In this document: piece by piece, positions 4,101-15,695 of the stretch
How positions within the stretch are numbered: position 1 is the first letter of the stretch
Layout: each line of letters begins with the position of its first letter
IMG/VR virus record: IMGVR_UViG_3300012232_000025
Coordinates: 1-42,267 of that record
Reading direction: 5' to 3' (one strand)
DNA length: 42,267 nucleotides
From: a virus
Lineage: Duplodnaviria; Caudoviricetes
Notes under the pieces: generated by a model
What the model was told of the DNA's origin: nothing
Databases searched by the model: none
What the model saw: the letters and a program-made list of their open reading frames with translations, nothing else
Program-made: the position numbers and the translations under genes

Positions 4101-4414
4101 CGTAGTGGCCTCCGGGGCTGGCATTCGTGTTCCGAAAGGGTCACCTCCCCGACCTTCCAAACGTAGACCCACACACTCGAGTTCGGACCGTCGCCGTGCA
4201 TCAGCACCCTGCATGTGCCTCCAGGATCGCCGCCGGACGCATTGAGCCCGTGCTTCTCGCGCAGATGAGCCATGGCCTCGGCAATCGTCATCCGCCCCGT
4301 GATGGGAATGGCCGGTCCCTCCTTGGGATGACAGTTGTGGCAAAAGAACCACCGGCCGAATTCCGGCGATGGCGTCGAAGGCTCAGGCAAGCGGGCAGGC
4401 CCTTTGATCTTCAT
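4097..4414 (-). CDS. Hypothetical C2H2-like zinc-binding protein
   Basis: CHNC...HLREKH; ATGA overlaps on both sides. Confidence 0.6.
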   Translation of the reverse strand: MKIKGPARLPEPSTPSPEFGRWFFCHNCHPKEGPAIPITGRMTIAEAMAHLREKHGLNASGGDPGGTCRVLMHGDGPNSSVWVYVWKVGEVTLSEHECQPRRPLR

Positions 4415-11985: not shown

Positions 11986-12282
11986 CGTTCTCGGGTCCGG
12001 CGATCGGCTACGACTGCACTGGCGGGGGGCTGAAATTGTCGTCCTCCCGCCGCTGACTTGTGGACGTGGCGGGAGGACGTGCCGGGGCTGGGGGAGGCGG
12101 GATCTCCTCCCCGTTGGCCGCGCCGGCAAAAGGGGTTTCGCCAGGGTCCGGGCCCGGTTGCGGGTCCTGGTCGGATTGGCGGAGCCACACGCGAGGCTTC
12201 CCGTCAGCACCACGGCCGCCGGGTTGCGGGATGCGGCCGCGCCGGCTCCGGTAGAATCGCGGGCGGTTCATAACGGGCTGCC

Positions 12283-12519
12283 CTACGAGAGCAGGATCAC
12301 GGGTTCCCGTCGGGAGATCGGGCGGCCGCGCTTGCGCTTCGGCTCGCTCGCTTGCTGAACGCAGGCCTCCACTTCAGAACGCAGGACGAGGAGGCGGGTG
12401 CCGTCGTAATGGCGCTTGAAGCGGCCGTCGGCGAAGCGGCCATGAATCTCTGACACGGAGCAACGGAGGTACTCAGCCGCTTCCCGCGCCGTCATCCAGG
12501 GCGAAGGGCAATCGTTCAT
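12283..12519 (-). CDS. xis: Excisionase-like HTH_17 protein
   Basis: WMTAREAAEYLRCSVSEI...GRFKRHYDGTRLLVLRSEVEA; near the integrase. Confidence 0.75.
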   Translation of the reverse strand: MNDCPSPWMTAREAAEYLRCSVSEIHGRFADGRFKRHYDGTRLLVLRSEVEACVQQASEPKRKRGRPISRREPVILLS

Positions 12520-12785
12520 GCGGCCTTCGCCAGTTGCCGTTTTTCACGAAGTCGAATCGTCAGGAGTGCCGACCCCATCTTGACTTCGAGGATTCCGTCC
12601 ACGTCGGCCTTTTCGAGAAACACCTCGCAGGCGCTTCGTCCCAAGTCCGAAACCGAAACTTCCGCGCGTCTGGCAATTTCCTCGAACCGGCTTTTCAGGT
12701 CATCACCGACCCTGATGTTCAACCACTTGTCCCCCCTCTTTTCCTTGGCAGGGGATGCGTCTCCTCGACCTTCCCTGGGCTTCAT
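12516..12785 (-). CDS. Ribbon-helix-helix regulator (first early gene, Cro-equivalent position)
   Basis: WLNIRVGDDLKSRFEEIARRAEVSVSDLGRSACE is a CopG/Arc-type RHH; ATG at 12785. Confidence 0.75.
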   Translation of the reverse strand: MKPREGRGDASPAKEKRGDKWLNIRVGDDLKSRFEEIARRAEVSVSDLGRSACEVFLEKADVDGILEVKMGSALLTIRLREKRQLAKAA

Positions 12786-12842
12786 GGAGTTTTTAGTAGC
12801 TTTTAGCTCCCAAATGGAGCAACAGAAAAACCGTGAGAAGTT
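12786..12842. promoter_or_regulatory. Divergent switch region with candidate operators
   Basis: 57-nt AT-rich gap; TTTTAG repeated at 10-bp spacing (12791, 12801); inverted repeat GCTCC-N5-GGAGC (12806-12820). Confidence 0.55.
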
Positions 12843-13178
12843 GTGAGGCGAAAAGCAAAGAATGCCCGGTTGCGACCGGCAAAACCAATCAAGGTCCAAG
12901 TCGACGAGAAGTATCGTCAGAACCTGGACGAGTTCATGACGCAGACGGGATGGTCCGGCGCCCGGGCCGTGAACCGCTGGATCGGAATGGGCATCAGGGA
13001 GGACCAGAAGGCGGGCGGGTTGCACATCCACTTAAAGCTTTCACCTCTGCCGGAGGGGGACTCTACCGACATAATCCAACCAGCTCCTGGTACGAACGCC
13101 CTTGGGTTGACGGAAAGCGCACCTGGCGAAAGCTCCAAGCCCTCACCCCAAAACAAGCCAGGGAAGAAATCGCCCTGA
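12843..13178 (+). CDS. Ribbon-helix-helix regulator (repressor position), overlapping the integrase
   Basis: KPIKVQVDEKYRQNLDEFMTQTGWSGARAVNRWIGMGI has RHH patterning; its last ~47 codons overlap the integrase in another frame. Confidence 0.6.
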   Translation: MRRKAKNARLRPAKPIKVQVDEKYRQNLDEFMTQTGWSGARAVNRWIGMGIREDQKAGGLHIHLKLSPLPEGDSTDIIQPAPGTNALGLTESAPGESSKPSPQNKPGKKSP

Positions 13179-14209
13179 AACGCGCCGACCAGGCGCGTAG
13201 CCGGCTGGGACTGGCGATCAACCCGTATGCCGGCGGCCAGACCATCGCCGCCATCCTTGATGCCTACGAGCGTGCTGGGTTTCCGGACAAGCACCGTCAG
13301 GGACGAAGTGAGAAGGCCCGCGCCGAAGAGCAACGCCGGACCGGCAGCCTCCGCCGGATTATCGGCGAGGAACCAATTGCGTCATTGAGTGCTCCGGTTT
13401 GCGACCGGTACGCCGATTTCCGCCGCGCGGAACTCAAAGCCATAGGCCGCGATGGATCACGCGCAGTTGACTTGGAGATTCAGGCCTTGAGCAATGCCCT
13501 CAATTACGCCCAGCGCACGGGCATGGCTATTGCCAACCCCATCCGCCACGGTCGACCTCGGTATCACCGGGCGAGCCGGGCGCGACACGCGCGGGACTGC
13601 AGTCCGGCATCGGGGAATGAGCTGCACCTCCTGGCGCGCACCCTGGCCGAAGACCCGCGGGGGGAAGTCCTCGCCTGGCAACTCCTCTTCTCCGCCCTGA
13701 CCGGCTGTCGGACGAGCGAGATTCTCCGGCTGCGGACCGACGCCGCGCCACGCAAGCCCGGGTTCATCGAGGGCGACTGGCTCTGGATCGAGCGGAGCAA
13801 GAATGGCGTCAACCCCTTCGTCGTCATCCATCCGGATCTGCGGGCCTGCATCGAAGGTCACAGGAAATGGCTCGCTGCCCTGCCCGAGAAATGGCGCGGA
13901 CCATGGTGGTTCCCCAGTCGACGGGTCCCCGGCCAGCCTACGGAGACGACGAGCCTCTCTCATGCCTTGTATCGAGTGGCGCCTGCCCTTGGGCTCGGAG
14001 ATCGGACGGCGCACGGACTCCGCGCCTACTTCGTAACCGTCCGCCGATCGCAGGGCATTTCCGACGGACAAATTGCCGCCGAGATCGGGGACAAGACCTC
14101 GTCGCTCATCGCGACGACCTACGGTCAGGTGCCGCCGGGCTGGCGGGGTGGGCCGGAGCTTTGCTGGATTCCGACCGACGGCAATCCGGCATTCTGGGAG
14201 GCAGCGTGA
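13031..14209 (+). CDS. int: Tyrosine recombinase (integrase); start uncertain, frame open from 12833
   Basis: Arm-binding-like N-terminus GLYRH...WYERPWVDGKRTWRKL; TGCRTSE (R), SKNG (K), HGLR, TTYG (Y). Confidence 0.9.
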   Translation, partial: LKAFTSAGGGLYRHNPTSSWYERPWVDGKRTWRKLQALTPKQAREEIALKRADQARSRLGLAINPYAGGQTIAAILDAYERAGFPDKHRQGRSEKARAEEQRRTGSLRRIIGEEPIASLSAPVCDRYADFRRAELKAIGRDGSRAVDLEIQALSNALNYAQRTGMAIANPIRHGRPRYHRASRARHARDCSPASGNELHLLARTLAEDPRGEVLAWQLLFSALTGCRTSEILRLRTDAAPRKPGFIEGDWLWIERSKNGVNPFVVIHPDLRACIEGHRKWLAALPEKWRGPWWFPSRRVPGQPTETTSLSHALYRVAPALGLGDRTAHGLRAYFVTVRRSQGISDGQIAAEIGDKTSSLIATTYGQVPPGWRGGPELCWIPTDGNPAFWEAA

Positions 14210-14688
14210 AGGATCATAATCGGAGGCACGCGTTTCCCGATGGGAGCGTCCTGCAACTCATCGATCTCGACGGAGACCAACGGGACCAAGCGGGAGCCTT
14301 CCTCGCGGACCTGTTCTCAATGGCCACCGCGGAAATGCGCCGGGATGGAACCTCCCGCGTCATTTTGGCCGACGGCCGGAAAGGGGCCACCCCTTGCTTC
14401 CTGAGCTACCACCGCAACCAGCCCGACCCGGACGATAACGGCTGGATGCTGATGACGGCCAGCCGCACGCATTCTCAAGCTGCGTTCATCGTGGATTACG
14501 CCTTCAACCAGCAGGTCCTCCCGAGCGGCCCCGGGGAGCCCGCCCCGATGCACTTCCACTTCGAGGAGGCGGGCTGGCAAAAGCGGATGCTGGCAGCCGT
14601 CCACGCCTGGAATTCCTATGCCGTCTCGTGCTGCCGCCCTCCCCTCCAATGGCCGGGATTGCCGGCCGGAATGAGACCAAGTGAGTGA
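14206..14688 (+). CDS. Hypothetical protein translationally coupled to the integrase
   Basis: GTG at 14206 overlaps the int TGA, with GGAGG upstream; 160 aa globular-looking sequence. Confidence 0.7.
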   Translation: MKDHNRRHAFPDGSVLQLIDLDGDQRDQAGAFLADLFSMATAEMRRDGTSRVILADGRKGATPCFLSYHRNQPDPDDNGWMLMTASRTHSQAAFIVDYAFNQQVLPSGPGEPAPMHFHFEEAGWQKRMLAAVHAWNSYAVSCCRPPLQWPGLPAGMRPSE

Positions 14689-14705
14689 GCAGTCAGATGC
14701 TTTTC

Positions 14706-14945
14706 TATAGTCCACTCCATATACCAGTAGTCCCCCGAAATGCGCTTCCAGCACGCAGCACCCATTTCAGTAAACGCCAATGATTCCGCGGGTTTCGTGC
14801 GAACACTCGCAGGCCGAAAAACCTCTGTTCTGCCTACGGATCAGAAGGTTCCTGGTTCAAATCCAGGCGGATGCGCCAGTCCCCCAAGCATTTACGACAA
14901 AGGCAGCGACCGCCGAAAAAGGAATATAGTCCACTCCGTATACCA
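14706..14945 (+). repeat. 21-bp direct repeats flanking the att core (integrase arm-type sites)
   Basis: TATAGTCCACTCCATATACCA (14706-14726) and TATAGTCCACTCCGTATACCA (14925-14945), one mismatch. Confidence 0.75.
14834..14878 (+). other. attP core = 3' half of tRNA-Arg(ACG)
   Basis: Anticodon loop CTACGGA, T-arm CCTGG-TTCAAAT-CCAGG, acceptor strand CGGATGC-G-CCA; no D-arm or 5' acceptor strand upstream. Confidence 0.88.
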
Positions 14946-15062
14946 CCCCTGCTGCAGGGTTGGTCACTTGGCCGGACGGCGTGTCAGGTGAACGCCGGAC
15001 AGGAGTTTAAGGACATTCGCCGACTGCAAGCGGGCCGCATCAATGCGGCAGGCTGGTTCGAC

Positions 15063-15695
15063 ATGAAAACCTACGTGTTGAATCAAGGCCTCGACTCCCT
15101 CAAGCCGCGGCTCTCGAAACAAATCAGCGACCGCGCGCTCGCCTGGAAAAGCAGCAATGAGATCGGCGGGCTCATCCGCGGTCTTTTGGCTGACGGTGTG
15201 GTCAACCAAAAGGAAGCCGAGTACTTCCGCGAGTGGATGAAGACGAGGGCCGACTCCTTCAGGCAGGATCCGGTGGCGAGTGTGCTGGTCGACCGGCTGA
15301 GTCTCATCTACGCCGATGGAGTTGTGACGGACGAGGAACTTCAGGAATTGCGAACCGTGTTGACGGCGTACGCTGGAGAAGAAAACAAGCCGACGTCGTT
15401 GCCGCTCGATGACCCAGCACCTCAAATTGTTTTCGCCTCCCACGCTTTCTGTTTCACCGGCCCTTTTTCATCCGGCAGCCGGAAATGGTGCCAGGATCAG
15501 GTCATGGCACGAGGAGGCGTCCCGCTGAACAATGTCGTCCTGGATCTTCATTATCTGGTGATCGGTTCGAAGGTAAGCCCCGCGTGGGCGAACACGAGTT
15601 ACGGGCGCAAAATCGAAACCGCAATGAGCTACCGCGACGAACGACGTCTGCCGCTGCGGATCGTGACCGAAGCTCACTGGGCGGCTGCCCTGTAA
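15063..15695 (+). CDS. BRCT domain protein with helical TerB-like N-terminus
   Basis: GLLADGVVNQKEAEYFREW and YADGVVTDEELQEL repeats; FCFTGPFSSGSR...GG...HYLVIGS...SYGRKIETA...IVTEAHW BRCT pattern. Confidence 0.85.
   Translation: MKTYVLNQGLDSLKPRLSKQISDRALAWKSSNEIGGLIRGLLADGVVNQKEAEYFREWMKTRADSFRQDPVASVLVDRLSLIYADGVVTDEELQELRTVLTAYAGEENKPTSLPLDDPAPQIVFASHAFCFTGPFSSGSRKWCQDQVMARGGVPLNNVVLDLHYLVIGSKVSPAWANTSYGRKIETAMSYRDERRLPLRIVTEAHWAAAL

Follow-up and report, generated by a model that had tools for sequence, protein, structure and literature searches.

A regulator-like ORF overlapping a conserved tyrosine integrase without an ordinary start codon in a small clade of phages

The window analysed here, which is the entire 42,267-nt virus record, holds a tyrosine integrase gene that is conserved and intact and must therefore be translated, yet it lacks an ordinary start, and the 5′ part of its reading frame is shared with an RHH-like regulator ORF. 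The integrase frame is open over 12800-14209, one base behind (-1) the frame of the RHH-like ORF, which runs on the plus strand from GTG 12843 to TGA 13178 (111 aa) and lies nested in the integrase ORF's +1 frame, its last ~46 codons overprinting the integrase N-terminal domain. A previous sequence-only reading of this DNA had described the -1 overlap and the missing integrase start, and had explained them by a programmed frameshift similar to that of IS1222 and IS3 elements; its coordinates were all confirmed on the sequence. According to the comparison presented here, the overlap is a real clade-wide oddity, and the frameshift reading has lost its specific signal.

The overlap is kept in 4/4 close-clade DNA loci, namely the window, L001, L003 and L004 (L004 and L005 being one phage), and none of the four has a start codon at the start of the integrase domain. 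The integrases of L001, L003 and L004/L005 are 65-72% identical to that of the window, and each is accompanied by an RHH-like ORF in the same register, with the last 46-48 codons overprinting the integrase N-terminal domain; the RHH protein of L003 is 54% identical to that of the window. An RHH profile search of 1.84 billion representatives returned seven matches, among which P0123-P0126 were new, P0121/P0122 corresponded to L004/L001, and P0127 (5412 aa, repetitive) was dropped. The same layout is implied by the four new proteins, which carry the same tail and three of which pair with close integrases, and comparisons of RHH proteins given below comprise eight sequences, from the four DNA loci and P0123-P0126. 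In a quick tree, integrases of the clade formed one group of 13 rows (SH-aLRT 100). Regarding further DNA of the clade, viral scans gave only the same three other phages, GTDB scans gave outgroups only, with the RHH profile found in 0/401 genomes, tblastn against 50,697 GenBank phage records gave no match, and a word-based search with the RHH ORF found nothing. Two extra matches of the viral scans, L134 and L135, were not integrase loci as far as checked (L134 was read).

The outgroup is formed by prophage/island integrases of Verrucomicrobiota (Limisphaerales), such as P0015/L087, L006 and L059, which are 35-50% identical to the window integrase and share with it the N-terminal [FWY]-x-x-x-x-G-[IL]-Y. 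There, 42 of the 60 rows with enough upstream DNA, many of them near-duplicates, have their own ATG at the domain start, whereas the 13-row clade of the window has lost it. In 6/42 of these loci, the integrase is coupled by ATGA to a +1-frame ORF upstream of it; in L059 (3001-3852) this ORF is an RHH-like gene, and the integrase ORF there ends after 283 aa and may be broken. Named hosts of the integrase homologues are Verrucomicrobiota, mostly Limisphaerales, and judged solely by these homologues the host of the window phage is likely a member of Verrucomicrobiota.

From its predicted start, the integrase ORF (12833..14209, plus strand) encodes 458 aa, with a 68-residue low-complexity leader, an N-terminal domain from F 13040 and a catalytic domain behind it. 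It matches PHROG 1 (integrase) at E 4.9e-23 and Pfam PF00589 at E 0.00015, the latter below the curated cut-off, and a single-sequence fold of the 458 aa was uninformative (pLDDT 34.5). The catalytic motifs R, K, HxxR and Y are present (GCRT, RSK, HGLR, TTYG) and invariant in 13 close homologues. The invariance of these residues, set against the diverged 4-fold sites of the core (7/103 identical), shows that selection maintains the integrase, which must hence be translated. Around residue 420 (EIGDK), D occupies the usual catalytic H/W position and is invariant in 44 aligned sequences. Synonymous conservation is raised in integrase codons 1-50 (6/14 against 7/103, p 0.001). This part of the gene also includes GGAGGGGG (13052..13059, plus strand), an SD-like run at integrase Gly-Gly-Gly with its synonymous positions kept: the triplet is written GGA GGG GGN in 4/4 clade loci, compared to GGC GGC GGC in 2/2 outgroup GGGLY loci. 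No start codon follows the run; for its conservation, and for that of codons 1-50, dual coding, an RNA signal and recombination between relatives are possible causes. The overlap shows why gene callers truncate or mis-start integrases of this clade, and P0009, P0010, P0012 and P0013 are annotated minus their N-terminal domain.

An assembly error, 1 nt of which had been listed as an alternative by the sequence-only reading, or a decayed integrase gene could in principle create such a structure. The record is indeed a metagenomic contig, and our check compared the junction with assembled contigs. One contig from a run of a different study (X2, depth 3.3) agreed with 12815-13131 with 0 differences and 0 gaps, disclosing no indel, and a contig from X1 matches too but may be the source of the record. 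The same register in three other phages, at the integrase divergence given above and with invariant catalytic residues next to diverged 4-fold sites, also opposes error or decay. We regard this explanation as very unlikely, close to negligible.

The identity of the overlapping ORF as an RHH protein is plausible, on weak evidence. The window ORF has no Pfam or PHROG match, and the top Foldseek rows are RHH proteins (CopG, CopASO) at a non-significant E of 1.7-2.2, while the homologue P0125 matches RHH_1 at E 0.0016, below the curated cut-off. An AlphaFold model built with eight sequences predicts helices at residues 22-35 and 39-57 with pLDDT of 88-90, followed by pLDDT of 50-60 past residue 60. 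The switch of protein-like content from one frame to the other, noticed from the sequence alone, is therefore real: the RHH model loses confidence after residue 60, and integrase homology begins at F (TTC 13040). In the column of this F, the RHH frame carries only S or G in 8/8 proteins, because TTC or TGG in the integrase frame forces it. Such a restriction indicates that selection acts on the integrase frame from F/W at 13040 onward and that this frame is translated by that codon. The RHH gene itself may start at TTG 12870 (102 aa) instead of GTG 12843. By eye, a -10-like nAGAAT was found 6 nt upstream of TTG 12870; in L004, TAGCAT has the same 6-nt spacing to the RHH ATG. The N-termini of the homologues and the -10-like hexamer suggest that a leaderless transcript beginning near TTG 12870 could encode the RHH protein.

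In regard to the start of the integrase, the only in-frame canonical start codons ahead of its domain in the window are GTG 12833 and ATG 12950. The former, and the open integrase frame across the RHH gene, had gone unmentioned in the sequence-only reading. GTG 12833 belongs to a direct repeat, GTGA-N6-GTGA (12833..12846, plus strand), which is invariant in the 4-locus alignment and contains two GTG codons 10 nt apart, GTG 12833 in the integrase frame and GTG 12843 in the RHH frame. At about even probability, we propose GTG 12833 as the start of the integrase, which would then carry the 68-residue leader and have the RHH gene nested in its 5′ end. In 4/4 loci the integrase frame is open for 75-76 codons upstream, with an in-frame GTG at -64, -65, -65 and -73, and it closes 11, 11, 11 and 2 codons above this conserved GTG, which in L001 and L004 is the only in-frame ATG/GTG/TTG. 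Between the GTG and the RHH start, the integrase frame is the only stop-free frame, and P0002 begins with V-K-H-C-E at the place matching GTG 12833. The sequence context is likewise consistent with initiation: the upstream 15 nt contain 8-9 A, and folding energies across the loci range from -2.5 to -4.3 kcal/mol, compared to a median of -4.4 for 42 outgroup integrase ATGs, a median of -10.2 for 400 background ATG/GTG codons, and -12.4 for ATG 12950. An SD-like word precedes only 5/42 outgroup integrase ATGs, and some Verrucomicrobia are SD-scarce according to PMC10783764. Long leaders also occur in the family, as L064 has an ATGA-coupled ATG 67 codons upstream.

The frame is open beyond what chance would give, and how strongly this speaks for GTG 12833 depends on the null model. 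Chance openness per locus was 0.14-0.25 with genome codon usage (product 1.2e-3) and 0.06-0.27 with codon shuffling, and 113/308 control windows were open; the overall range is thus 0.06-0.37, except for two loci that reached 0.46 and 0.66 under the most conservative permutation. Within-ORF synonymous permutation gave a product of 8e-3. These products of P overstate the case, since all four loci are related as well as mosaic (they are grouped one way by the integrase tree and another way by the RHH identities); with the control rate and three independent loci the value is about 0.05. Stop-forming junctions are missing (0/57, compared to 29/372 in control genes, p 0.02), and leftward RHH genes of the same four loci contain 1-4 stops each in their -1 frame. 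Openness was counted in the four DNA loci, P0123-P0126 being known as proteins only. We take the open integrase frame over the RHH gene as moderate evidence, given the relatedness of the loci. A slip at 13032-13037 does not predict an open frame across the whole RHH gene.

On the other hand, slippage spread over the RHH gene would also predict an open -1 frame. Conservation of the GTGA-N6-GTGA repeat need not mean initiation, as it may be kept as an operator or promoter element, and the repeat is possibly an operator in addition to its coding role. Intergenic DNA in general is A-rich and weakly folded, and GTG 12843 scores equally well. Moreover, if the sole transcript begins near TTG 12870, behind the -10-like hexamer, GTG 12833 is not transcribed. 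If initiation at GTG 12833 nevertheless holds, ribosomes on one A-rich, SD-poor leader would pick either the integrase GTG or the RHH start located 10-49 nt downstream; alternatively, the choice would be made between a longer and a shorter transcript. The 68 leader residues would be disordered. If the RHH transcript is leaderless and begins near TTG 12870, a longer one would be required for the integrase, by analogy to the establishment promoter of 186, which is a speculation. As for its origin, such a nested structure could have formed when an ancestral ATGA stop-start junction between the regulator and the integrase was lost. We infer that this loss would remove the stop of the regulator and the Met of the integrase together and would thereby account for the read-through tail as well as for the lack of the Met.

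Other loci of the family present related organizations. In the distant integrase locus L097/L079 (2782-3010), an SD-led ATG lies 69 codons upstream, and the frame stays open over the full length of an HTH gene, the end of which coincides with the domain start. An outgroup prophage integrase in L092 (2680-3000) has an upstream ATG and a frame open for 135 codons across a small +1-frame ORF, which contains an A8 run (A_AAA_AAA) near its end and is preceded by TGnTATAAT; L092 is a better candidate for classical frameshifting or slippage than the site in the window. In L047/L049 (2900-3000), the integrase lies beside a tRNA-Arg(ACG), and there is no ATG, GTG or TTG in the 30 open codons upstream of the domain. 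Finally, L022 (590-880) represents an independent regulator-integrase overlap: a homologous integrase (45%) shares DNA with an RHH gene of the other frame, and ATGs in the integrase frame occur within that RHH gene.

A different route to the integrase would be a -1 ribosomal frameshift or a +1 transcriptional slippage from the RHH ORF, generating an RHH-integrase fusion. We consider it possible but unlikely that the integrase of this clade lacks independent initiation and arises solely by transframe fusion to the RHH repressor, with slip sites that turn over between lineages or are spread along a gene whose -1 frame is kept stop-free by selection. Such a fusion agrees with the -1 register and the crossover column, both the same in the four DNA loci and four more proteins, with an integrase domain that begins without a start codon, and with the synonymous conservation of codons 1-50, as expected of an RNA signal or dual coding. 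In addition, NNA_AAG occurs one or more times in the RHH frame of every locus (codons 5 and 64, 24, 5, and 47), and PMC4066793 and PMC5009743 describe A_AAG as the shiftiest tetramer in E. coli and NNA_AAG as the site used by IS1222. However, codon shuffling of these ORFs yields at least one A_AAG in 34-61% of cases, and 95/316 control windows contain one as well, so its presence is at chance level, and no slip motif is common to the loci at any one position. Fusions are also missing among the proteins: 0/7 RHH-profile matches are RHH-integrase fusions, and by eye none of the 120 integrase homologues listed has an RHH-like N-terminus.

The window does contain the specific site proposed earlier, C-TTA-AAG (13031..13037, plus strand; TTA and AAG are RHH-frame codons), but TTA_AAG occurs in just 1/4 DNA loci; L003 carries TTA_AGA instead, which is synonymous for the integrase, L001 has TTC_CCG, and L004 has none. 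Among the eight RHH proteins, Lys occupies the slip column in one, and in two of them the eight residues ahead of this column contain no Lys. Conservation across relatives, suggested as a check by the sequence-only reading, was observed for the -1 overlap and not for TTA-AAG. The SD-like GGCGG upstream does exist, at 13010-13014 and 13014-13018, in columns that are not conserved in the 4-locus alignment. Likewise, the arms of the proposed hairpin, TTCACCTC (13040-13047) and GAGGGGGA (13053-13060), are there and 7/8 positions pair, but the stem is neither stable nor shared: the region folds no better than its shuffles in the window (z +1.21 and +0.89), z for downstream structure in the four loci is +1.21, -0.95, -0.03 and +0.04, and RNAalifold on the four loci found no shared stem with covariation. 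According to PMC4066793, a tetramer shifts only with the help of a strong stimulator that begins 4-10 nt downstream, while the stem in the window begins 2 nt past the motif. The sole shared G-run, GAG_GGG, was rejected as a shift site, as it comes downstream of the selected F/W of the integrase frame and a shift there would skip the aromatic residue. The IS1222-like signal thus does not hold up, and within the fusion reading only a slight chance is left for a programmed shift at TTA_AAG. The remainder belongs to lineage-specific or diffuse low-level slippage along the RHH gene, with the open -1 frame catching it.

Start codons other than GTG 12833 were considered as well. Lineage-specific in-frame starts inside the RHH gene would include ATG 12950 (12950..12952, plus strand), giving an integrase of 419 aa, an alternative that had already been named from the sequence alone. 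This codon is present in the window and in L003 and is picked by gene callers (P0001, P0006); P0002, P0005 and P0008 have other in-frame Met codons, and the ATGs of L022, which lie within an overlapping RHH gene of another frame, offer a precedent. On the contrary, neither L001 nor L004 has such a codon, and the ATG is formed as a by-product of the RHH-frame Gly-Trp codons and sits in folded RNA (-12.4 and -11.7 kcal/mol). ATG 12950 is therefore not a general answer, and internal starts of this kind appear quite unlikely. The chance falls further, to highly improbable, for a near-cognate start codon directly before F 13040. Outgroup integrases with their ATG within -16..+8 codons of this place (the 42/60 rows mentioned above, with their many near-duplicates) and the ATT found there in L001 would favour it, but the codons differ from locus to locus (CTT AAA, GTT AAG, ATT CCC, GGT CCA), and K, P, L, S or N is found in the column of the ancestral Met.

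The surrounding genes are arranged in two divergent groups. On the minus strand, replication genes, an excisionase-like HTH gene and a second RHH gene follow in that order. The HTH gene (12283..12519, minus strand, 78 aa) is gene 2 of the leftward operon and matches Pfam HTH_17 at E 1.5e-6 and PHROG 66 (excisionase) at E 1.6e-6. The leftward RHH gene (12516..12785, minus strand, 89 aa), the divergent partner, matches Pfam RHH_1 at E 0.00099, just under the cut-off, has a counterpart in 4/4 loci, and has a presumed Cro/Cox-like position. The plus strand carries the RHH-like ORF, the integrase frame and the 3′ half of a tRNA-Arg. Since this is a layout of the P2/186 kind, with a regulator and integrase opposite a second RHH gene, excisionase and replication genes, it is reasonable to assume from the layout alone that the plus-strand RHH protein is likely the lysogeny repressor; the earlier idea that integration is hard-wired to immunity likewise derives from gene layout. 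A consensus scan found no plus-strand promoter in the switch, and Rfam gave no match in 12000-15200. On the minus strand, the ATG of the leftward RHH gene is preceded at 7 nt by TTGCTC-18 nt-TACTAA (12793-12822), and L001 and L003 contain similar words. Read by eye and missed by the consensus scan, this stretch is a possible leaderless promoter.

Downstream of the integrase follows a 160-aa ORF (14206-14688), joined to the integrase stop by an overlapping GTGA; L001 contains a homologue. The tRNA-Arg(ACG)-like 3′ half, read from the sequence, ends with CCA (14834..14878, plus strand), and no full tRNA was found in the window. It likely represents the attP core, and in L049 a tRNA-Arg(ACG) adjoins the homologous integrase. 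The attP-like stretch was absent from the five Verrucomicrobiota genomes searched with up to 3 mismatches allowed. The cores differ among close relatives, being tRNA-like Lys in L003 (4293-4367), another one in L004 (~4310-4370) and Arg in the window, which means that target sites differ within the clade. Beyond attP, a 274-aa gene (14871-15695) matches PHROG 3989 (function not known) and has a weak TerB match.

Compared to known systems, the window resembles IS1222/IS3 in having a small DNA-binding ORF and a recombinase ORF overlapping in -1, and in the window phage alone the likeness extends to the NNA_AAG hexamer, the GGNGG word and the hairpin. It differs in that motif, position and structure are not kept in relatives, in that the recombinase is a complete tyrosine integrase possessing an N-terminal domain of its own, and in that the integrase frame is open over the entire upstream gene to an in-frame GTG. 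Tail-chaperone G/GT genes of phages similarly combine an upstream ORF with a -1 overlapping ORF without a start; their slip site is conserved in position, whereas no slip site is positionally conserved in the clade of the window. With the P2/186 switch, the window shares a regulator and integrase facing a likely attP and a second regulator, excisionase-like and replication genes on the opposite side, all in putative roles. In P2, C and int are co-transcribed, and in both P2 and 186 repressor and int follow one another as separate ORFs, each with its own start; in contrast, the regulators of the window are RHH-like, and the genes are nested over about 110 codons. In 186, int is carried on the leftward lysogenic transcript, and an establishment promoter is located upstream of the lysogenic promoter, as stated in PMC7708051.

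No description of an overlapping regulator-integrase arrangement was found in the open-licence literature searched, and the term 'integrase' is absent from 300,000 characters of the review PMC5009743 and from PMC3711429. Either answer to how this integrase is translated would be unusual for a lysogeny switch. If it is nested, a regulator of ~110 codons would reside within an integrase gene, and the Int:repressor ratio would be set by the choice of start codon or transcription start. If it is a fusion, the phage would produce a recoded repressor-integrase protein, and integration would then be tied stoichiometrically to repressor synthesis. The overlap offers a compact, testable model for integrase dosing in an SD-poor host.
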